A stretch of DNA of 64,000 nt, taken from the IMG/VR virus record IMGVR_UViG_3300028591_000095, positions 32,001 to 96,000 of that record; one strand, 5' to 3'. The number at the start of each line of letters is the position of its first letter. Within the stretch, counting starts at the first letter, position 1. This document shows positions 5,001 to 50,161 of the stretch, piece after piece. Position numbers and translations under genes: made by a program. Below the pieces are notes generated by a model. The model did not search any database. It was not told where the DNA came from and saw only the letters and a program-made list of their open reading frames with translations. This DNA comes from a virus (lineage: Duplodnaviria; Caudoviricetes).

Positions 5001-7319
5001 GGTGTTCCAATAAGTTCCTGCAATGGAGATATCAGCAGTTACAGCATGTGCAGGACTACCTCCAGCAACCATAAATACATTAGTATCAGTGTCAAGAGTT
5101 AATGTTCCTGCGGCATAACCACCTTCTGATTCACGACCATATCTACGAGCATTACCCCAACCACCATTACATTCCAGACGGTATGTTCCCGGTGGTAATG
5201 AAACTTGCTCCATTCTACCGGTGCATATCGAGTATACAACATCATTCCGTCGTATATTATTTACTTTTCTTGCAATGATGATTTTAGCTGTATCTGAACG
5301 AGCAGATTCCATGAATATGTTAGAGAAGTAATAATCACTCATGGTGTATCCATCCATATAACCAGATGGTTTATATGAGTTGGTAGTGAGAACGTATCCA
5401 CTACCACCTCCACCGCAACCTATTGTGTGTTCTCGGTTGCTGACACCCATAGTACAGTAACCACCATACCAGCCTCCACCACCACCGGGTTCTCCTTCAG
5501 CACCACAATTACCGGTACCATAGTTGTGTTTCAATAAACCATCCTGACCACGACCGAATCTCCAACCATTCGTTTGGGTAGGATAACGGTATCTATTGAA
5601 ACCACTATCTGAATTTGGATAACCACCAAACACTCCACCACCGGAAGCCATGTCACTCATTTTGGCTATTGTGGCTTCCCAGAATTGTCCACCTCCGCCA
5701 CCACCAGCGACAATGATTCGTGAATTTAACGACGGTGATGACTTAGTATTGTATGTGAATGTACGTGTTGGAATTGTTGTGTAGTTGTATGGTGAGAATG
5801 GTAAATTTCCAGGACCGTAACTGTTACCCGCTGTACAGTATATCATTAATCCAAGACTAATGTCTGTGGTGACACCGCTATTAACAGTAAACTCAATAAA
5901 GTTTACTGTAGTATTACGAAGATCACCCATGGTATAGTCTAAGACATAAGTGTCATTTGGCAAGTCATCGATGCTGTAAGTTTTTCTGATGGTTGTGGTT
6001 GTACCATCATCATATCCGAATTTGATAGAGAATCCTGATGGAAGTGCGATAGTATTTCTGAAATGTACACAAGCAGGTCCACCATAACTTTTTGAATCAG
6101 GAACATTACAAGTTTCAAGCAATGGGAATCTATATGTAGTATTATCGCTTGCGGTACCTGATATAGTATATTCACCATTGACAACTGCGAAGGTGACATC
6201 ATTAACAGTTGCTGTTGTATCTACAGGACATGGTAACTTGTTCAGTCTCTGTTCATACTCAATAAATGTGTCACCTATGATATCATAAAAACCAGAGATC
6301 GAACTTCCGTTTTCAGTCTTAACAACTGGAACGAATTTATGTACATCAGAATCATCTTCTCTGATAGTAAGATAATAAATTCTCGCATTGGCAAGATCCT
6401 CCCAGAAAGGAGTACCAGTACCACTCGCACGATGAGTTCCAAACACACCTAACGATGGTACTGGATATGAACTGTTATCAAAATCAACTGGTGCGAATGT
6501 AGTATGATCATCATTTGATGAATGGTATATTGTATCAGAACCATTTTCATGCCAAGTAGCTTCAGTCTCACCCATATTGACAATAACACGAGTGTTGTAT
6601 AACGCAGGGTCGGTACTGCCTGTTGTAATGTCAACCTGTTGGGAACCTGGACAATTGAATCTATATTTCCAAGTACCATTATTGCGTATCTGGAATGAAT
6701 ATGTAGCCCAATAGTCAGATGCTTGTGTACCCATACCAGTATTATCACAACCAACTAAACTCTGATATGAGTTTCCACCAGCGGAATCGTCAGCATAGAA
6801 TTCAAATTCTAGTGTTGTAAGATGATTAACATGATAACCTGTATCAAGACCTTGACTTGATGCACGCAGATATTCCATTGCTGAATATTGTGCTGGTAAT
6901 GTCACCTCATGTTCAATATATTCATCTGGATCTATATTCAGACGAACATCGGAAGCTCCACCACCGCCAGGTCCACCATAATATGATGCCGTGTTTGCTA
7001 AACCACCGCGGCCGCCACCGTTATATCCACCGGGTGCGAATGTGACTTTATCCGAGTTAGTATTTGCACCATCACCACCGACAACAGCATACATTGTGGT
7101 GGTTTCTGCAAGATCCAGTATACCCATTGACAAACCTCCGTAGGGTTTCTCTTGATCACGACCTGAATCACTTGAATACATACGACCACCACGAGCGCCA
7201 TAACACATCATCAGATATGTATCAGGTTGAAGTGTAAACTCTTCAGGTTCTCCTGTGTATTGGAAATCGTGTATTACTTCGAATAATTGATCTTGGTAAA
7301 CATACAAAGTTCTACTCAT
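2001..7319 (-). CDS. Tail fibre/receptor-binding protein with two ALK/LTK-like glycine-rich domains, ConA/LamG-like inserts and a C-terminal propeller-like region
   Basis: Two copies of the Gly-rich signature (GGYNGGG..GGGGASDVR / SRIIVAGGGGG..GGGGGWYGG..GGGSGYV). LamG-like segments (YINTGY..KLYSFKMYE..PCKRDSD..GMYDLV). Short repeated beta-strands in the last ~350 aa. Confidence 0.7.
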   Translation of the reverse strand: MSRTLYVYQDQLFEVIHDFQYTGEPEEFTLQPDTYLMMCYGARGGRMYSSDSGRDQEKPYGGLSMGILDLAETTTMYAVVGGDGANTNSDKVTFAPGGYNGGGRGGLANTASYYGGPGGGGASDVRLNIDPDEYIEHEVTLPAQYSAMEYLRASSQGLDTGYHVNHLTTLEFEFYADDSAGGNSYQSLVGCDNTGMGTQASDYWATYSFQIRNNGTWKYRFNCPGSQQVDITTGSTDPALYNTRVIVNMGETEATWHENGSDTIYHSSNDDHTTFAPVDFDNSSYPVPSLGVFGTHRASGTGTPFWEDLANARIYYLTIREDDSDVHKFVPVVKTENGSSISGFYDIIGDTFIEYEQRLNKLPCPVDTTATVNDVTFAVVNGEYTISGTASDNTTYRFPLLETCNVPDSKSYGGPACVHFRNTIALPSGFSIKFGYDDGTTTTIRKTYSIDDLPNDTYVLDYTMGDLRNTTVNFIEFTVNSGVTTDISLGLMIYCTAGNSYGPGNLPFSPYNYTTIPTRTFTYNTKSSPSLNSRIIVAGGGGGGQFWEATIAKMSDMASGGGVFGGYPNSDSGFNRYRYPTQTNGWRFGRGQDGLLKHNYGTGNCGAEGEPGGGGGWYGGYCTMGVSNREHTIGCGGGGSGYVLTTNSYKPSGYMDGYTMSDYYFSNIFMESARSDTAKIIIARKVNNIRRNDVVYSICTGRMEQVSLPPGTYRLECNGGWGNARRYGRESEGGYAAGTLTLDTDTNVFMVAGGSPAHAVTADISIAGTYWNTRFPTATYNGGNVDNYSSRSGCWSASGGGSDIRLIRPEQITIEKSIPDGYTELTYIENKENNRGYINTGYTHKANTIVECKCCLTQNTYQAYQSIFGSRIGPHDSNLNFFMRFDSRDIPVFCCNTYETEGSGLVYGQDITIIVDGTTASWYDSQGILIGSIQSEATEQVDGKFSMFIFNNNTSGNPQTDIGRLKLYSFKMYENGIYKRYLLPCKRDSDDAIGMYDLVTDQFIEGSISTYGYGGLNAGDPVSEKTVVEIVIANLEQSLLSRIIVAGGGAGVGGGDGKGGQGGGLSGTTKDGGSGYGSNAGPGTQTESPQSGDERARGGFGYGGLGLYKDSGYGGSGGGGWYGGSGTVPDGSGDDDQAGSGGSGYVLTDSSYKPSGYIPDERYYLTDTALIAGGSQEPVGVTSVKITAVEVLAVRILCEDIEGIKSYNKETHEWEYNEEITEITVDTLNQYGTAYLQNDTGLINPYTIYLNDEDDMYDSITISVIPNTLTMKTTIDTPYLVDSCTLDITCDPSLQYTVTTKETRDRIEFKCTFDMFNVPTVQNNIYNIYTTSTNTKACGLHPPIRPYKHLDHIDLMIVGENERVPNRYNDYSDPTLLDGTTPITDIYYSNTLEYNRELYTLMAVNGTTVRLIKFTLISKEYSVLFELPNSVLGLPYSGNTTYIGGFLVDSNYVYITAKTDQKYIIRINRADTTDITKLTVLPTTITGRGKMFWVSIEEFAVATKGGFVIFNTKTQNISDSFAYTSDWDAFDWIATDKYLIKGSTSSNSNLLVYDRVAETFSVKSQYGTGWQSLCKDDNYIYVGQAVSGGSAVVEILDINTLERVRVVSLPTSNAPETLVIANGTLYYTLADDYNIYLCRLHSDGSDQFKSIHHMYQFKSQSTSNTNNWQVFPCTFKSYYFVPYFKLFTANYRDDIKYNLGYKYNDHIYPVIAQYEEAYEYDPKYITFYDAYANIHPGEFDLELETYDGTIKRCINDIDYRSLIKITLNEKGV

Positions 7320-7351
7320 GTAAGTTCACCACCTTTCTATTTAAATTGATA

Positions 7352-7753
7352 TTATGTGAGATTATAAGGATCATCTGCTGAGTTGTAAATAGCAACCAGA
7401 GTATCCTGTGGAAGACTGTTGACTTCTTCCTGAGTAGGATCTGAACCATATGTGACAATAGATGATTCAAATCCAACGAGTTTGAGTTTGACACTACCCT
7501 CAGTACCATCACCACGATAGTCAGTTTCAAAATCAACTGCAGTATATGTCATCAATACACGGTATACAGTTTCATTATATACTACAAGGGTATTACGTTC
7601 GTAAGTTGTACCAGGTGTATAGTCAACGATAGTGGCATTGCCTCCACCTCCACCAAGTTCAAGTTGTTTAAGCTTCTCGGTAATACTTGCAAGTTTTAAA
7701 GTATTAGCTTCAATCTGTTCCTGCAAGTCAGTAAATATTTTAGGCAGTTCCAT
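7352..7753 (-). CDS. Small virion protein: coiled coil + Gly linker + CBM5/12-like carbohydrate-binding module
   Basis: N-terminal heptads, GGGGG linker, then YTPGTTYERNTLVVYNETVYRVL, which resembles the CBM5/12 pattern W/YxxxxxYxxGxxVxYxGxxY. Confidence 0.5.
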   Translation of the reverse strand: MELPKIFTDLQEQIEANTLKLASITEKLKQLELGGGGGNATIVDYTPGTTYERNTLVVYNETVYRVLMTYTAVDFETDYRGDGTEGSVKLKLVGFESSIVTYGSDPTQEEVNSLPQDTLVAIYNSADDPYNLT

Positions 7754-27213: not shown

Positions 27214-29313
27214 TTACTTAACGAGACCAGCATTGCTGTCCGGTACGAGTGCAGTATTCTTAGCAATGATTCTTGCATCAACACCCTGAACAGTGATCAT
27301 CTGATACTGTGAAGATGTTGTGATAAGAACTGCCTGTCCGCCAGGTGAGTTGATATCCTGGTAACCTGCATTCTCAGGAGAGTTTGTCAGGTGACGAGCA
27401 AATCTGAGGTGCTTGTGAGTAATGTGGAACTTATCCATCGGATATGCACAGATCTTCCAGAAGTATTCCTTTGACTTCATGCCAGGCTTGTAGTCAGGAT
27501 CACTTGTCTGGTATGCATCGATGAGTGTGTATGCAGGAACACGGTTAGAAGCAACAACACGAATCGGAACTGACTCGTCTGTCATTACACCGAATGCATG
27601 GTTCATCTTTACACCACCGATTTCTGTAGACTGCTGAGTTGTCCATGTAACGAACTTCTCAAGAAGTCTTGCACTCTTCGGGTTGCTGTAGATAACGAAG
27701 CCGAGGTTGTCGAGCTTACCCTTATCGCAGAGCTCATAGATGGTAGAAGCAATTGCATTGTGAAGTGCATTTGTTCTGTACTCGAACGGATCACCAGCGA
27801 ATGAAGGTGAGATGAATGTAGGATCGAAGTCAACATACTCAGTGTGAGTATAGGAATCAAGATTCCAGATGTTGCTGTCAGCACCATCCCACTCAGCGAA
27901 CTCTTCGTCGAGCTTCTCAAGGATGTACTGATCCTCGAACATTTCCTGAGCTGTAACAAGCTCCTGAACGAGTCTGTTGTAGAGGTTGAAGTTGAGTGAA
28001 GCATTAGCCTCAGCAAAGTCTTCAACTGTGAATGGAAGCTGGAATCTGCAGCCATCACCGATTGTCCACTTTCTGATCTCAGGATACTCACGGAAGCCGA
28101 TTGTTCTGAGGTTTGTCTCATTTGAAATATAGCCATTGATGTAGAAGCCCTTGATAGTGCCACATGCAGAAGCATTTACATAGCCCTTAACGAAGTCAAC
28201 AACACCGCTGAGTCTGTCGTCAAATGATGTAGTTACACCAGTAGGCTTGTTTGTTACAGGATCAACAACTGTAAGAACCTGTGTAGCATCGATACCACCG
28301 TTGAGGAATACACCACCGTTCTGGATATCAACCTGGATACCACCGCGAGGAAGTTTGATCTTAGCATTTGTAATAGCAGCTACTTGTGAGTAGTAAGTAT
28401 CAGCAGCCCATGTAGGAGCACTACTACCAGTTACTGCAGAATATGTATCTGTCTGAGAATCGTATGTGTAGTAATCAGTATATTTTGTAGACCAGTCTGC
28501 AGGCTCCTCTGTTGTTACAACATATGAAGCAGGAACATCAGCAACAACGTACTTGACGTGGAAGTCATAGCTGAGTCTTGTTCTGGGAGTCTTCACGAAG
28601 TTTGTAGGATGATTACCGTTCTCATCGAGGAGGTACTGAGCATCGAGAAGCTGGAGCTTCTTACCAGGTGCAGCAGCGATAGCAGCAAGAGTAATAGGAG
28701 TTGTGTCATCCAGACGGAGACCCTTACCTGTATACCAGAGTTTCTTCCAGAGTTCTGTATCAAAGTAAATTCTTGGTGTCTCGTACTCTTCACCAGTCTC
28801 ATTGTTTACGAGGTACTTTGTGAAGATACGCTGCTCGATGTTTGTTGAACCAGCTGTAGCAACAGGAATCAGATCCTTACCGAGGAACTTGATGAACTGC
28901 TTAACGAGTGCCGGGAAGTCGAGAGTTGAGAGAGGAAGATATGTAGATACGTTGTAACTTTCCTGAATGAAGTTGTTAACTGCACCATCCCAAGCTGAAG
29001 AAAGCTCGTCTGCAACAGACTCGAGGTGGAGACGCTCAACTTCACTCTCTGTAGGATAGGTTCTGATCTCGTCACAGATAGGATCGAGGTAAAGAGCCTT
29101 GTACTCCTGCATGATCTCAGGATGATCGAGCATCTTTCTGAAGTCAACAGTTACGTTGATATCATGTGAATCTTTCAAAGTATTTACAGCGGATTCCAGA
29201 TAGTTATCAGCAGTTTCTCTGATAGCTAAAAGATCAGACTCTGTAGCATTATTAATCATAGTCTGCTGTTCCTGGAACCAAGAACCACGAGCGGGTACGC
29301 GTGCGTATGCCAT
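27214..29313 (-). CDS. Major capsid protein precursor
   Basis: ~700 aa with the strongest codon bias in the window. Propeptide ends near FIQE|S and is followed by LPLSTLDFPALVKQF..KDLIPV, like T4 gp23/jumbo-phage MCP N-arms. Same operon as the prohead protease. Start at ATG 29313 by RBS AAGGAG. Confidence 0.75.
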   Translation of the reverse strand: MAYARVPARGSWFQEQQTMINNATESDLLAIRETADNYLESAVNTLKDSHDINVTVDFRKMLDHPEIMQEYKALYLDPICDEIRTYPTESEVERLHLESVADELSSAWDGAVNNFIQESYNVSTYLPLSTLDFPALVKQFIKFLGKDLIPVATAGSTNIEQRIFTKYLVNNETGEEYETPRIYFDTELWKKLWYTGKGLRLDDTTPITLAAIAAAPGKKLQLLDAQYLLDENGNHPTNFVKTPRTRLSYDFHVKYVVADVPASYVVTTEEPADWSTKYTDYYTYDSQTDTYSAVTGSSAPTWAADTYYSQVAAITNAKIKLPRGGIQVDIQNGGVFLNGGIDATQVLTVVDPVTNKPTGVTTSFDDRLSGVVDFVKGYVNASACGTIKGFYINGYISNETNLRTIGFREYPEIRKWTIGDGCRFQLPFTVEDFAEANASLNFNLYNRLVQELVTAQEMFEDQYILEKLDEEFAEWDGADSNIWNLDSYTHTEYVDFDPTFISPSFAGDPFEYRTNALHNAIASTIYELCDKGKLDNLGFVIYSNPKSARLLEKFVTWTTQQSTEIGGVKMNHAFGVMTDESVPIRVVASNRVPAYTLIDAYQTSDPDYKPGMKSKEYFWKICAYPMDKFHITHKHLRFARHLTNSPENAGYQDINSPGGQAVLITTSSQYQMITVQGVDARIIAKNTALVPDSNAGLVK

Positions 29314-29385
29314 AATTAAATACACTCCTTATTGTAAATTTGGTGATTTTTTATACTCACCATAGTATTTGTAGTTAGAAAGCAA

Positions 29386-45629: not shown

Positions 45630-45649
45630 GGGCGGGGTTAACCCCGCCC
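45630..45649 (+). terminator. Intrinsic terminator
   Basis: Palindrome GGGCGGGGTTAACCCCGCCC. Confidence 0.75.
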
Positions 45650-45669
45650 AATTCTTTTATGTCTCAAAA

Positions 45670-45683
45670 AACCAAACCGTAAA
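45670..45683 (+). promoter_or_regulatory. Putative late promoter AACC-N6-TAAA
   Basis: Upstream of the 45709-49289 operon. Confidence 0.45.
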
Positions 45684-45708
45684 ATTATACTTTAAAGAAG
45701 GTGATAAA

Positions 45709-46902
45709 ATGGATGAATTCATAAATGAATTTGATTTTGGTATTGATGAAGCGATGACATTTATAATGGAATCTGCTGAAACGAATCTCAGATTGAGAAA
45801 AGAAATCATCGAACCAATCATGAAGGTTCTTGATACCAAAAAGGGTTCTGATGAATATCTGAAGTTTGGTACTGAATTTATTGAAGCTAATGCTGAAATG
45901 CTTGCAAGAGAATTTCCAACTAAACGTGTATCATTCCCAAAGAAATACGTTGATAATATATTCAGTGTATTTGGATTTGATAAAGATGAATTCAAGAAAA
46001 CATTCAAAGAATTATGTGCTGATATCAATGGTAGTGACTTCAAGACTGTAATGGCTACTCCAACGAACATAATTCATACGATTGTTTTATTCTATTCAGA
46101 TATCACATACAATCGTTATGTTAGAGACTCAGCACGTCAACAACTTGCATTGACTGTCTATCACGTTATGTTCAATAAATTCTATCATGGTTTACCAGAT
46201 GAGAAAGTCATGGCATATACATATCTTCATCTTAATAGAAACTGGGCTATCATTAAAGCTGAAGATATGATGACATGGATATCTGATATGGTTGATTCTG
46301 CATATGGATTCTATAAAACCCAACTCACACTGAATACTTCTGCACACACAATCATCAAGTTCTTGAATAGACTCAGAGCACAGATGCGTCAGTCAATGGC
46401 ACAACTTGCAAATGTTTACTTTAAGAATCAGACTGAAGGCAATCGTGTTAATGAAGATTCTACAACTGGAGACAATGAATATATTGTATCTGATGATACA
46501 TCTCAAATCCGTAGTAAACTCATGCAGTTGTTGAAACGTGGTGATACTCTGTATACTACTGAAAGTAATTTGTATACTGGAGTTGGCAGACTCAAGAATG
46601 TTTCATCAAAAGCATTATTTGAATTAGCCCAGCAAGTATCTCATAGAGATATCAGTGAATTGATTGATTTAATATTCTACGTGTTCATAGTAAAAGAAGG
46701 ACATAAGGTTGAAGAAATCAATTCATCTGCATACATCGGTGAGATAACAAACTTACCAACCAAAGTTGATCGTTGTATTCCTGGAAAACCTATCATTGCT
46801 CCATATGTAAAGAAATACAAGGTCAAGAAAGAATTGATCGTCGCATATATCTGTCTTATTGCAACATGGATAATGATGAGGATCAATGACGTTACTAAAT
46901 AA
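45709..46902 (+). CDS. Hypothetical (likely virion) protein
   Basis: 397 aa helical protein with a FIME|S head-type site near the N-terminus. Confidence 0.6.
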   Translation: MDEFINEFDFGIDEAMTFIMESAETNLRLRKEIIEPIMKVLDTKKGSDEYLKFGTEFIEANAEMLAREFPTKRVSFPKKYVDNIFSVFGFDKDEFKKTFKELCADINGSDFKTVMATPTNIIHTIVLFYSDITYNRYVRDSARQQLALTVYHVMFNKFYHGLPDEKVMAYTYLHLNRNWAIIKAEDMMTWISDMVDSAYGFYKTQLTLNTSAHTIIKFLNRLRAQMRQSMAQLANVYFKNQTEGNRVNEDSTTGDNEYIVSDDTSQIRSKLMQLLKRGDTLYTTESNLYTGVGRLKNVSSKALFELAQQVSHRDISELIDLIFYVFIVKEGHKVEEINSSAYIGEITNLPTKVDRCIPGKPIIAPYVKKYKVKKELIVAYICLIATWIMMRINDVTK

Positions 46903-46916
46903 AAGGAGATGATAAT

Positions 46917-48785
46917 ATGGCTAGAGCATTAGGCGATTTGAGTCCTGCAGTTGGTGGTGATGGTGTTATCAACGAAGATGATCTTCAAGCATATCAGGAT
47001 GCCATTGATTTAAACAGAATCCATTCGCATTGGGATAACGTTGAAGACCCTGAAGATCCTGGTCATCGTATTAACAAAATCATTGACATCGATAATGGTG
47101 GTTTGTTAACAGATCAAGCTCGTGTTGCATCATTACACAGAACTGGATTTATATCCAATATCGATAAACTTCTGATTTCATCTTTTATTAATGATCCACA
47201 AGGTGAAACTCTTGAAGCACATATCAATGCTATAGATTCAAAGGAAGTTATTCCTGTACCGGATCCATCCGTTAAGACTCTTGAAGAACTCAGAAGAAAT
47301 ATCACTGATCATATTCAAGAACTTGTTATCTTCCAAGCTCAAGCATTTCTTGAATTGCAGAAGACGGGACCTTCAAGCTTACACGACGTTGAACAGAAGA
47401 TGCAACGTGTATGGGCTGATGCATATAAGTATGATTATGATACAGCAGCTCAGACTGATGCTAACATGGAAGCTGCATTAGAAGTTGATGGAAGCAAATA
47501 TCCTGAGGATGATGGACATAAGAAACTCCCACAGAACATCTATGGTCTCATCGATAGTATCATCAGAGCTCTTACAAAGGTTCAGCTTGATAATGTAATA
47601 TCAGAATATTGGAAACCTAGTGAGGCTCCTACAATATCAGATCCACCTACACCCGAGCAACAGACTAAAGTTATCGATCATATATGGAATGAAACAGGTG
47701 TCGAGAAAGGTCTTTCATTCTACAATGAATGGAAGGATGTTGAACCTTCACCAGAGCCAGGACCAGAACCGACTCCTACTACAGACTTGGTACCTCCAAT
47801 TCCAACAGCAGCAGCACTAACTGGAGATCTTGCTACATGGGTTTCTAATTCAGCAAATGCATCAGATCTTCAAGCAGTCATCGATGCTCAACATCCACAT
47901 CAGATTATTACATGTGCATTCAAATCTGGTGTTACAAATGCATCTACAACGAAATCTGTTGAACTTACATGTTGGCAATATTCATCTGGTACATGGGCAA
48001 AAGCTAAGGATAAAGATGGAAATGATATGGAATTTACCGAAGGCTGTTATGTAGGTGATGCTGGTATCTTCCCAGTATCAGAACTCAAAGAAGGAGATAA
48101 TGCTAAGAAAAATAGAACTCCAGCAGGTGCATTCCAGCTTGGTAACTATACAACCAATACAGACGAGGTTGGTGCATTTGGTATTGATACTGCTTGGGGA
48201 ACTGAAACACCTGACATGCACTATCGTGTTTTAAATGCTAATAATGTACACTGGATTGATCGTGATGGTTGGCTTGCTGGTTTGAAAAACTGGTACAACA
48301 TGTTTGCTAACTGTGATGGTCAACGTGCACTTATTCAGTATAAACGTTTCGATTGGGATACAGGAGTTTCAGGTGGTGTTGCTGATAAAGATGGTAATAA
48401 GTATTCAACTGCAAGTACGGAATTCAAGTATGGTCAGTTCTATACAGTTTCACCATTAGTAGATTCATCAGAATATAAAGAAAATCTGTATGAAGAAACT
48501 TCGAGTTATGGAAGTAAATATTCTTACAACCATGCAGTTGTTATCAGATTCAATATGCCACCACATGTAACTAGACCAGTATTGCCAAAAAACACAGATG
48601 AACAACAGCCAGCATATACATCTGATGGTATTGGTGCTGGATCGGCATACTTCTTACACACATCCAATGGTTCAAATACTGGAGGATGTGTATCTGCAAA
48701 CGATAACGATGTCGTGAAGATAATCAAGTGGTTGAAGCGTAATGATAACCCTTACATTCTCATCAGACTTCCCTCAGGATCATAA
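46917..48785 (+). CDS. Dockerin-like domain + L,D-transpeptidase (YkuD) family cell-wall enzyme
   Basis: N-terminal GDL..DGVINEDDL / ASLHRTGFISNIDKLLI duplicated dockerin-like loops; P/T linker; EGD..RTPAG.F..YNHAVVIRFN..GSAYFLH..TGGCVS (catalytic His/Cys). Confidence 0.7.
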   Translation: MARALGDLSPAVGGDGVINEDDLQAYQDAIDLNRIHSHWDNVEDPEDPGHRINKIIDIDNGGLLTDQARVASLHRTGFISNIDKLLISSFINDPQGETLEAHINAIDSKEVIPVPDPSVKTLEELRRNITDHIQELVIFQAQAFLELQKTGPSSLHDVEQKMQRVWADAYKYDYDTAAQTDANMEAALEVDGSKYPEDDGHKKLPQNIYGLIDSIIRALTKVQLDNVISEYWKPSEAPTISDPPTPEQQTKVIDHIWNETGVEKGLSFYNEWKDVEPSPEPGPEPTPTTDLVPPIPTAAALTGDLATWVSNSANASDLQAVIDAQHPHQIITCAFKSGVTNASTTKSVELTCWQYSSGTWAKAKDKDGNDMEFTEGCYVGDAGIFPVSELKEGDNAKKNRTPAGAFQLGNYTTNTDEVGAFGIDTAWGTETPDMHYRVLNANNVHWIDRDGWLAGLKNWYNMFANCDGQRALIQYKRFDWDTGVSGGVADKDGNKYSTASTEFKYGQFYTVSPLVDSSEYKENLYEETSSYGSKYSYNHAVVIRFNMPPHVTRPVLPKNTDEQQPAYTSDGIGAGSAYFLHTSNGSNTGGCVSANDNDVVKIIKWLKRNDNPYILIRLPSGS

Positions 48786-48803
48786 TGAAAGGAGTTGAAT
48801 ATT

Positions 48804-49289
48804 ATGGCTAGAATATTTGGTGATTTCAATGACGATGGTACCGTAGATGCAAGAGATTCATCTGCTATCGGTGGTTATGTCACAACTCTTAAGAAATGTG
48901 GAACTCCTGAATCTATACCAACTCAAGAGGATATTGATGCTGGTGATGTTTTGAGATTTGGTAAACTCAATATGTATGATTCGAAAGCTATATTGACAGT
49001 ATACGCAATTGACAGTACACTAGAAAGAGATTGGGTTTGTCCAAAAACAGAACCATCTAACTGGGCTACAGCATATAAGAAGTTTTATTACACTGATCCA
49101 CAGACTCAAGAGAGAAAACCTATGAGTGCAATGACACAGTGTCCTTCATTCGATCCTGGTGGAACTGGTTATATCGGTCCATATTGGATCCATGGAAACT
49201 TTGCAGCTAATGTATTTCCTAAGAAACATAATGAGGAACATGATATTGATTACATCGATATCAGTAACTACATATCTGATTTACCATAA
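48804..49289 (+). CDS. Ruminococcus-type dockerin protein
   Basis: GDFNDDGTVDARDSSAI..PTQEDIDAGDVLRFGKLNMYDSKAILTVYAIDST fits the GDxNxDGxVDAxDASxIL..YA..ST dockerin pattern; C-terminal TEPSNWATAYKKFYY module. Confidence 0.7.
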   Translation: MARIFGDFNDDGTVDARDSSAIGGYVTTLKKCGTPESIPTQEDIDAGDVLRFGKLNMYDSKAILTVYAIDSTLERDWVCPKTEPSNWATAYKKFYYTDPQTQERKPMSAMTQCPSFDPGGTGYIGPYWIHGNFAANVFPKKHNEEHDIDYIDISNYISDLP

Positions 49290-49374
49290 CTCACAAGTAA
49301 TCTCATTAGCTAGACTTCCAATATAGGTAGCCGTTGGAACCTCCTTTGAAAACTAATGGGATTTTAAAATATAT

Positions 49375-49396
49375 ACACCCCGGTTTCCCGGGGTGT
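49375..49396 (+). terminator. Intrinsic terminator
   Basis: ACACCCCGG-TTTC-CCGGGGTGT followed by a T-tract. Confidence 0.8.
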
Positions 49397-49413
49397 TTTA
49401 TTTTCTCTTTTTG

Positions 49414-49432
49414 TATTTATATCATTATGGTG
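49414..49432 (+). promoter_or_regulatory. Putative early promoter, copy 5
   Basis: TATTTATATCATTATGGTG. Confidence 0.65.
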
Positions 49433-49480
49433 TACGAAGGAACTCATTTGTACAAAAATTTATCTAGGAGGTTAATCATT

Positions 49481-50161
49481 ATGGGTGTACAGAATGACAG
49501 TAATTTTGAAGGAAGCGTATTTGAGAAATCATTGAACTTTCATAACAAGGATAAGAGTATCGATGACAAACTCAAGGAGCTTCCTAAGTCTGATGGTGCA
49601 TGGCAAAAATGTATCGATGATAACATCGTACCAACTAACCCAGTATATACTGGTGAAGCTAAGGAGGAACCAAAGACTGTTAAGAGACCATCAAAACCTG
49701 AATATTATCTCAACATTGCATCAGTGGTTGCAACACGTTCTACATGTATACGTAGAAAGTTCGGTGCTGTAATAGTAAAGGATGATACAATCATATCAAC
49801 CGGATATGCAGGAGCTCCTCGTGGTCGTGAGAATTGTTGTTCCAGAGGAGAATGTTTCAGAATGGAAAACAATATCCCAGCTGGTACAAGATATGAAGTA
49901 TGTAGATCTGTACATGCTGAAATGAATGCAATCATCAACGCTGATCCTATAAAACGTAAAGGTGCCACAATGTATCTTGTGGGTCTTGAGAATGATGGTT
50001 CATATACAGAAGCAGATTGTTGTTCAATGTGTAAGAGAATGGTAATCAATTCTGGAATAACAAAGATGGTATTCCGTACAAAGGACAAAGGTGTTAGAAC
50101 AGTGGTTGTTAATGAATGGATTGCAAATGATGATTCATTAACTATACATGAGGGATATTGA
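49481..50161 (+). CDS. dCMP deaminase (ComEB-like) with N-terminal extension
   Basis: RSTCIRRKFGAVIVKD..STGY.GAPRG, HAEMNAII and CSMCKR Zn ligands; start at ATG 49481 (RBS AGGAGGT). Confidence 0.88.
   Translation: MGVQNDSNFEGSVFEKSLNFHNKDKSIDDKLKELPKSDGAWQKCIDDNIVPTNPVYTGEAKEEPKTVKRPSKPEYYLNIASVVATRSTCIRRKFGAVIVKDDTIISTGYAGAPRGRENCCSRGECFRMENNIPAGTRYEVCRSVHAEMNAIINADPIKRKGATMYLVGLENDGSYTEADCCSMCKRMVINSGITKMVFRTKDKGVRTVVVNEWIANDDSLTIHEGY

Follow-up and report, generated by a model that had tools for sequence, protein, structure and literature searches.

Ruminococcus of the rumen and gut assembles its cellulosomes and amylosomes through pairs of cohesin and dockerin. In Ruminococcus flavefaciens FD-1, the group-4 dockerins (those of ScaH, ScaF, ScaI, CttA, ScaB, and a cysteine peptidase) have the ScaE cohesin as their partner, through which they are attached to the cell surface. 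They have an internal two-fold symmetry and a dual binding mode, and each repeat contains a Gly-Arg dyad that takes part in binding (PMC5301203). Phage dockerins were mentioned only in passing in the literature that we searched, where Vibrio phage VvAW1 and a jumbo phage from a brine pool were said to have genes annotated as dockerins, and no study on the function of a natural phage dockerin was found. Here we describe two adjacent genes, p622 and p161, whose products begin with a dockerin-like and a dockerin module, respectively. They lie in a 64,000-base stretch of phage DNA (the window), bases 32001-96000 of the 166,640-base virus record IMGVR_UViG_3300028591_000095, which is about 62% complete. 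We propose that these leaderless proteins are released at lysis and address the host envelope through Ruminococcus-type cohesins, the peptidase of p622 included, and we give this reading a probability of roughly 40%.

The dockerin module of p161

p161 opens with a genuine dockerin, as judged from profile searches and a predicted fold. Against the Pfam profile PF00404 (Dockerin_1, cut-off 22.9 bits) it scored 22.4 bits as a protein, just under the cut-off, and 24.5 bits in a six-frame search, and four of five related virus records matched at 23.4-25.9 bits. Hence the dockerin repeats that a sequence-only reading of this DNA had noticed are borne out by a hidden Markov model, with scores around its cut-off. 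Both repeats and their spacing are present in p161. The first calcium loop of p161 (GDFNDDGTVDARD) is canonical. In the second (GDVLRFGKLNMYD), calcium positions 3 and 5 are occupied by hydrophobic residues, Leu/Met and Phe/Ile, across the whole family, and thus a single calcium site is probably left. When a six-member p161 profile was searched against 1.84 billion representatives, 12 family members were retrieved, followed by Pfam-confirmed Dockerin_1 proteins. Longer proteins bearing a close dockerin were not found.

The structure of p161 was modelled with AlphaFold2 (AF2) from a 17-sequence alignment of the family (A3), and the predicted local distance difference test (pLDDT) values were 77-92 over residues 1-60. 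The top 33 Foldseek matches of this model were all dockerins. VIA-align superposed it on the R. flavefaciens ScaH dockerin (8ajy_D) with a Z score of 12.0 and a root-mean-square deviation of 2.0 over 82 of 84 residues. Dockerins also filled ranks 1-13 of that comparison, and the first unrelated chain followed at Z 4.1.

The type of the dockerin was compared among PDB chains only, by a search with the p161-family profile (FD-1 as a whole has about 220 dockerins). The ScaH dockerin (ScaH-Doc) was matched over the whole module at E 7.4e-10, and the next match, a C. thermocellum dockerin (8e-6), was weaker by four orders of magnitude. A stand-alone dockerin from a relative (P0030 of L027) has two canonical loops, and its best PDB matches were ScaH-Doc, the CttA X-dockerin, and Amy16 of R. 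bromii. Among solved structures, the nearest relatives of the phage modules are therefore the group-4 dockerins of R. flavefaciens. The sequence-only reading had called the modules Ruminococcus-style and had linked dockerins of this pattern to a wall-anchored ScaE-type cohesin. Both points hold up: ScaH-Doc is the best PDB match by sequence profile as well as by predicted fold, and group 4, including ScaH, binds the wall-anchoring ScaE cohesin (PMC5301203).

At the recognition dyad of repeat 1, x-Arg is found in about half of the phage lineages (Ala-Arg in p161, Gly/Gln/Ser-Arg in other lineages). The dyad of repeat 2 is Met-Tyr in the phage family and never contains Arg. The two-fold symmetry of group 4, with a Gly-Arg dyad in both repeats, was thus not found in the phage family. 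A single binding mode, which had been guessed from the degenerate second loops, fits a recognition dyad in repeat 1 only and a second calcium loop that is degenerate family-wide.

Alternatively, the modules might have no cohesin partner at all and serve as calcium-dependent folding or stability elements, or bind another component of the envelope. In one variant, the module could hold the peptidase inactive in the cytoplasm, where calcium is low, up to the time of release. We consider this unlikely. In its favour, dockerin repeats are widespread in proteins without known cohesins, and several of the best matches are multi-repeat proteins with PEP-CTERM or planctomycete signals; moreover, the second calcium loop is lost in p161 and the p622 module is strongly degenerate. 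Calcium-dependent EF-hand-like sites are also known in phage lysins such as LysGH15 (PMC4022735). However, all relatives have retained the module right at the N-terminus, in some cases as a whole protein of 93-97 amino acids, where it is hard to see as a stabiliser of something else, and the Arg of the recognition site and the Ruminococcus-type signature Y-A-x-x-S-T are retained.

The other modules of p622 and p161

Both proteins open with MARxxGD, as had been noticed from the letters, and the N-terminus of p622 is the more degenerate of the two dockerin-like modules. Its first calcium loop (GDLSPAVGGDGVINEDD) is interrupted by SPAV, about 35 residues are inserted between the repeats, and the second repeat reads SLHRTGFISNID. 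Pfam Dockerin_1 did not match p622 itself at E values up to 1, and relatives of p622 gave a weak match of 12.6 bits over model positions 2-56. In hhalign, the N-terminus of p622 aligned with the first repeat of the p161 family at a probability of 91% (E 9e-7). VIA-align matched it to 8ajy_D at Z 5.2, on a low-confidence model (pLDDT about 50). A short relative of p622 (P0087) has an uninterrupted, canonical first loop and scored 21.4 bits against Dockerin_1.

The C-terminal domain of p622, which the sequence-only reading had not mentioned, is predicted to be a YkuD-fold Cys/His L,D-peptidase. It scored 23.6 bits, and 26.8 bits in frame, against Pfam YkuD (PF03734), a small margin over the cut-off of 23.4 bits. 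In VIA-align, 19 L,D-carboxypeptidase or L,D-transpeptidase entries ranked first (Z 6.8-11.4), including Pgp2 (Z 11.4), Csd6 (Z 11.2), Bd1075 (Z 10.2), and many L,D-transpeptidases at Z 7-10; pLDDT was mostly 70-93 in the core strands of the fold. Foldseek on the whole p622 model returned weak matches only. No sequence relative of the YkuD-type domain was found outside these phages. The 13 homologues of p622, all metagenomic, align end to end, and His581 (48657-48659) and Cys591 (48687-48689) are invariant among them down to 34% identity. These two residues lie in an L-H-S ... T-G-G-C-V-S motif and are likely to be the catalytic pair, an assignment made by motif and not by residue-level superposition.

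Between the dockerin-like module and the enzyme lies the best-conserved part of p622, for which AF2 predicted helices, with pLDDT of 71-82 only for residues 204-260. Two relatives encode only the first 250-280 residues or so of p622 and thus have no enzyme. One of these short forms is 42% identical to residues 1-280 and stops where the Pro/Thr linker starts, and the other is P0087. The YkuD enzyme is therefore an add-on to a unit of dockerin and helical core.

The core bears on another explanation, in which the dockerins bind a partner encoded by the phage, either a divergent cohesin-like domain or one of another kind, and for example tether the L,D-peptidase to a phage protein, with host cohesins uninvolved. 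The conserved core could be an interaction surface, and two leaderless proteins with homologous N-termini look as if they shared an address tag. A Pfam cohesin search of the 166-kb record gave only a chance-level match of 11.9 bits inside the DNA polymerase, and the same search of a 182-kb relative was negative. This absence counts only weakly against a phage-encoded socket, because the records searched are 62-68% complete and divergent sockets would be missed. A phage-encoded partner would also leave the specific likeness to Ruminococcus group-4 dockerins unexplained, and we give this explanation little credence.

Behind its dockerin, p161 carries a Trp/Tyr-rich module that was modelled at pLDDT of about 45-70. 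When the 1,581 open reading frames (ORFs) of the genome were searched with a profile of this module (hmmsearch), the major capsid protein of the phage itself was matched at E 6e-6. The capsid module comprises about 50 residues (E-P-A-D-W-S-T-K-Y-T-D-Y-Y ... A-P-T-W-A-A-D-T-Y-Y) and is conserved in the relative L029, whose capsid protein is 65% identical. A fibre-like phage protein holds the module twice, and one member of the p161 family has a second copy ahead of its dockerin. An Atlas look-up of the p161 C-terminus yielded nothing usable.

The capsid match raises the question of whether p161, p622, or both are displayed on the virion, where their dockerins would catch host cohesins as a reversible first attachment. 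p161 would then sit on the capsid through the common Trp/Tyr module, and p622, if on the particle, would be a wall enzyme for entry. The homology to the capsid segment and the match to the fibre-like repeats are consistent with such a display, and the two genes belong to a unit that abuts the structural gene block. However, the unit is transcribed away from that block and heads the replication gene block. Motifs for the prohead protease were absent by eye from p622 and p161, and no canonical dockerin loop was found in any other ORF of the 166-kb record, fibres included. A coupling of the capsid module to that of p161 was considered and rejected, since in one relative the capsid protein has the module and the small dockerin protein does not. 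Display on the virion thus seems quite improbable to us.

Gene unit, variable slot and host

p622 and p161 are the second and third genes of a unit that starts with p397 (Table 1). The gaps between the genes are 14 nt (p397/p622) and 18 nt (p622/p161), and each ORF is preceded by a Shine-Dalgarno site. Since strong terminators stand at both ends, the three genes form a discrete unit. The region flagged in the sequence-only reading does contain both dockerin genes, but it also took in p397, which has no dockerin. A late-promoter-like motif claimed for the operon could not be confirmed: no upstream k-mer of at least 10 bases recurs in the genome, and a sigma-70 scan stayed at chance level. That neither protein has a signal peptide was confirmed, as the highest 19-residue Kyte-Doolittle means are 1.04 for p622 and 0.53 for p161, neither of them at the N-terminus. 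The N-terminus of p161 (MARIFGDFNDDG) lacks a hydrophobic stretch, and p161 is not the secreted bearer with a signal peptide that is expected of a dockerin.

Table 1. Features of the dockerin gene unit and of related loci; coordinates refer to the window unless another record is named.
Feature	Location	Strand	Remarks
Three-gene unit	45650-49400	+	bounded by two terminators
p622, 622 aa	46917-48785	+	second gene; start MARALGD
p622 residues 1-100, degenerate dockerin-like module	46917..47216	+	hhalign to p161 family
p622 residues 101-275, helical core	47217..47741	+	best-conserved part; homologue alignment; AF2 helices
p622 residues 276-300, Pro/Thr/Glu-rich linker	47742..47816	+	Gly-rich in distant relatives; short forms end here
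p622 residues 301-622, predicted YkuD-fold L,D-transpeptidase/carboxypeptidase-like domain	47817..48785	+	large insertions; Pfam, VIA-align
p161, 161 aa	48804-49289	+	third gene; start MARIFGD
p161 residues 1-75, Ruminococcus-type dockerin module	48804..49028	+	begins at the very N-terminus
p161 residues 76-128, Trp/Tyr-rich module	49029..49187	+	P-x-N-W ... Y-K-K-Y-Y ... A-P-x-W; hmmsearch, BLASTP
p161 variable tail	49188..49289	+	nearly invariant C-terminal Leu-Pro; conserved columns of family alignment
p397, 397 aa	45709..46902	+	first gene of unit; phrog_2921, function unassigned, no dockerin
Upstream intrinsic terminator	45630..45649	+	8-bp GC stem and T run; closes 175-aa gene; 5' edge of unit
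Downstream intrinsic terminator	49375..49396	+	closes unit; inside TTG-extended frame of next gene
Trp/Tyr module copy in major capsid protein, about residues 265-313	28385..28530	-	capsid gene 27214-29325
Cassette of relative L023	L023 7989-9328		syntenic slot; logan SRR11450174 contig, 69 kb
Amidase_2 endolysin candidate	virus record 6911-7723		25 kb upstream of window; SH3-like tail by eye
Peptidase_M23 protein, 191 aa	virus record 101587-102159	-	5.6 kb beyond the window's end

p397 is conserved like the topoisomerase, with 80-82% identity in distant relatives, and probably has a core function unrelated to dockerins. It had no match among isolated phages, and an Atlas search was uninformative. 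Its C-terminus is a nearly invariant hydrophobic helix (LIVAYICLIATWIMM). On the other side of the unit, the deoxycytidine monophosphate (dCMP) deaminase ORF is listed with a TTG start, and in its stretch 49334-49480 it reads through the terminator hairpin. The true start is probably the ATG at 49481 behind AGGAGG, which fits the products of 224-250 amino acids in relatives.

The window encodes split RNA polymerase beta subunits of the phiKZ/AR9 kind, a head protease, and the capsid protein, as well as DNA polymerase, topoisomerase, and dCMP deaminase, and contigs of 213-261 kb carry near-identical proteins. The closest isolates, with about 30% identity in an RNA polymerase subunit, are jumbo phages of Staphylococcus and the Bacillus phages AR9 and PBS1. 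The source is thus an uncultured AR9-like jumbo phage. The pair p622 and p161 is kept across one clade of AR9-like phages of roughly 250 kb. When p622, p161, p397, and the capsid protein were searched by tblastn against 50,697 records of isolated phages, no match was found. Relatives came from IMG/VR and from records labelled TONG22 and STEW19, which we take to be buffalo-gut and cattle-rumen studies, and the sample names point to the ruminant gut as the habitat of the clade.

The gene order is the same in all relatives: a gene for 397-400 amino acids is followed by variable content and then by dCMP deaminase, DNA polymerase, or both. Four types of content were found in this slot. The first is the core with YkuD, followed by a dockerin with the Trp/Tyr module; the second is the core alone, followed by a 156-aa dockerin protein of the p161 family (P0024); and the third is the core alone, followed by a 97-aa dockerin. 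In the fourth, found in L023, a 97-aa stand-alone dockerin is followed by a 59-aa holin-like gene and an endolysin. The holin-like protein has two hydrophobic helices (phrog_13256), and the endolysin combines Peptidase_M15_3 with PG_binding_1 (phrog_894, E 1e-30). The small dockerin is therefore the constant element of the slot, and on two independent occasions a wall enzyme accompanies it.

The slot also stands out by its divergence. In distant relatives, p622 is 35-52% and p161 27-29% identical, compared with 80-82% for p397. In the flanks, the DNA of our phage is 99-100% identical to that of its closest relative (L001). Precisely at p622 and the beginning of p161 the identity falls to 56-92%, and for the two dockerin genes it is 56-96%, with a sharp recombination boundary at 46917-48850 of the window. 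The rate of synonymous substitution (dS) is 0.41 in p622 and 0.013-0.044 in the flanks, about 10-30 times higher in p622, and the ratio of nonsynonymous to synonymous rates (dN/dS) is 0.1-0.3. The allele was thus imported by recombination and has since been under purifying selection. By analogy, high divergence at a recombination-prone pair is typical of host-interaction genes and may be the signature of an arms race.

Two further wall enzymes of the phage were found when 54 additional ORFs of the genome were scanned, an Amidase_2 endolysin candidate and a Peptidase_M23 protein that is possibly a virion-associated wall enzyme. Over 220 residues, the amidase shares 63% identity with the endolysins of two Ruminococcus phages from human faeces, NatCom_23091 and NatCom_29429, and it shares about 50% with the endolysin of Faecalibacterium phage Mushu. 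Strong Shine-Dalgarno sites and nearest isolates on Bacillus and Staphylococcus were also counted for the host. Judged from these sequences, the host probably belongs to the Oscillospiraceae and is similar to Ruminococcus. This family is well known for its cohesin-dockerin systems, and given that the endolysin is 63% identical to its counterparts in Ruminococcus phages, cohesins are probably present in the host.

A 41-kb contig of a relative with both dockerin genes (CAYYEN010000001.1, L021 / L022) sits in a species-representative metagenome-assembled genome (MAG) of the Spirochaetaceae. A spirochaete host was set aside, because the only dockerin of this MAG is on the phage contig itself and the endolysin points to Ruminococcus. 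The placement is probably a case of mis-binning, which could mislead host predictions.

Proposed role and comparison with known systems

If the two proteins act at lysis, p622 and p161 would build up in the cytoplasm, as lysis proteins ordinarily do, and would reach the envelope once the membrane is breached or the cell bursts. In the calcium-rich exterior, their dockerins would plug into wall-anchored cohesins of the ScaE kind on a Ruminococcus-type host. Docking would hold the L,D-peptidase of p622 on the peptidoglycan, and the dockerin would thereby act as the wall-binding domain of a lysin. The enzyme might trim stem peptides or open 3-3 cross-links alongside the amidase endolysin. p161, which has no catalytic part, would serve as a plug in sockets of this kind, where it may stop progeny from sticking to debris or tether the Trp/Tyr module. 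A link of the dockerin to lysis and the wall is supported by the syntenic slot of L023, in which a dockerin is paired with a holin-like gene and an M15 endolysin.

Several findings weigh against release at lysis and docking on host cohesins. Dockerin-like modules are common in proteins without a known cohesin partner, and the best matches in the representative library include multi-dockerin proteins of that kind. The second calcium site of p161 is lost family-wide, while the dockerin of p622 has no x-Arg dyad and an interrupted first loop. The Spirochaetaceae MAG that holds the contig of the relative has no Pfam cohesin. Since a canonical amidase endolysin and an M23 peptidase are encoded elsewhere, p622 is not needed as a lysin; the same two enzymes and the enzyme-less forms of p622 weaken the candidacy of p622 as the endolysin of the phage. 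No holin adjoins the unit, and no homologue of the holin-like protein of L023 was found in the 166-kb record. Finally, the core is kept without the enzyme in relatives, and its conserved job is therefore other than catalysis.

On a broader view, which we hold tentatively, this clade of jumbo phages may have taken over the plug-and-socket system of the host, with p622 bringing a peptidase to the wall anchor and p161 blocking or re-using the socket, so that the cellulosome surface would be remodelled, detached, or masked. Of the sequence-only reading, the Ruminococcus-type dockerins and the ScaE-binding group stand, the single mode fits the sequences, and a Ruminococcus-like host is probable, whereas the hijacking of the cellulosome is still a matter of inference.

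If the modules bind host cohesins, these phages turn to their own use the surface machinery with which key rumen bacteria degrade fibre. Lysins would then have a targeting domain of a new kind, whose ligand is a protein socket and whose grip is potentially very tight and calcium-switchable. The type of a phage dockerin could help to assign hosts to uncultured rumen jumbo phages, and orthogonal dockerins, together with an uncharacterised YkuD-fold wall enzyme, could be drawn from the cassette as a natural source. Should the modules not bind cohesins, they are a modest addition to the known non-cellulosomal dockerin-like modules.

Among known systems, the best match to the phage modules is the group-4 (type III) dockerins of R. 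flavefaciens, which include ScaH-Doc (PDB 8AJY), the X-dockerins of CttA and ScaB, and the peptidase dockerin. Both have an equal inter-repeat length and a Y-A-x-x-S-T motif after the helix, and R. flavefaciens offers a parallel in the host, as it attaches a cysteine peptidase to ScaE by a dockerin of this group (PMC5301203). The phage modules differ in that they are encoded by a phage and lie at the extreme N-terminus of proteins without a signal peptide. Moreover, group-4 dockerins are symmetrical and dual-mode, whereas in the phage modules the second calcium loop is degenerate and the dyad is missing there.

p622 also resembles the modular endolysins of phages of Gram-positive bacteria, since it is a leaderless, predicted wall enzyme with a flexible linker and a targeting module. 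PlyC is a two-gene lysin, and p161 is likewise a small non-catalytic companion encoded beside the gene of an enzyme. Unlike in the modular endolysins, the targeting module of p622 is N-terminal and would bind a protein socket instead of a wall polymer, and the predicted catalytic fold is YkuD, for which we found no description as a domain of endolysins. The predicted fold of p622 matches the YkuD-fold enzymes Csd6, Pgp2, Bd1075, LdtMt2, YkuD, DpaA, and the type VI secretion system effector Tlde1 (Z 7.5-11.4). The domain of p622 differs from these enzymes in its length, since only about 130 of its roughly 320 residues can be aligned, and it has no NTF2-like or peptidoglycan-binding partner domain.

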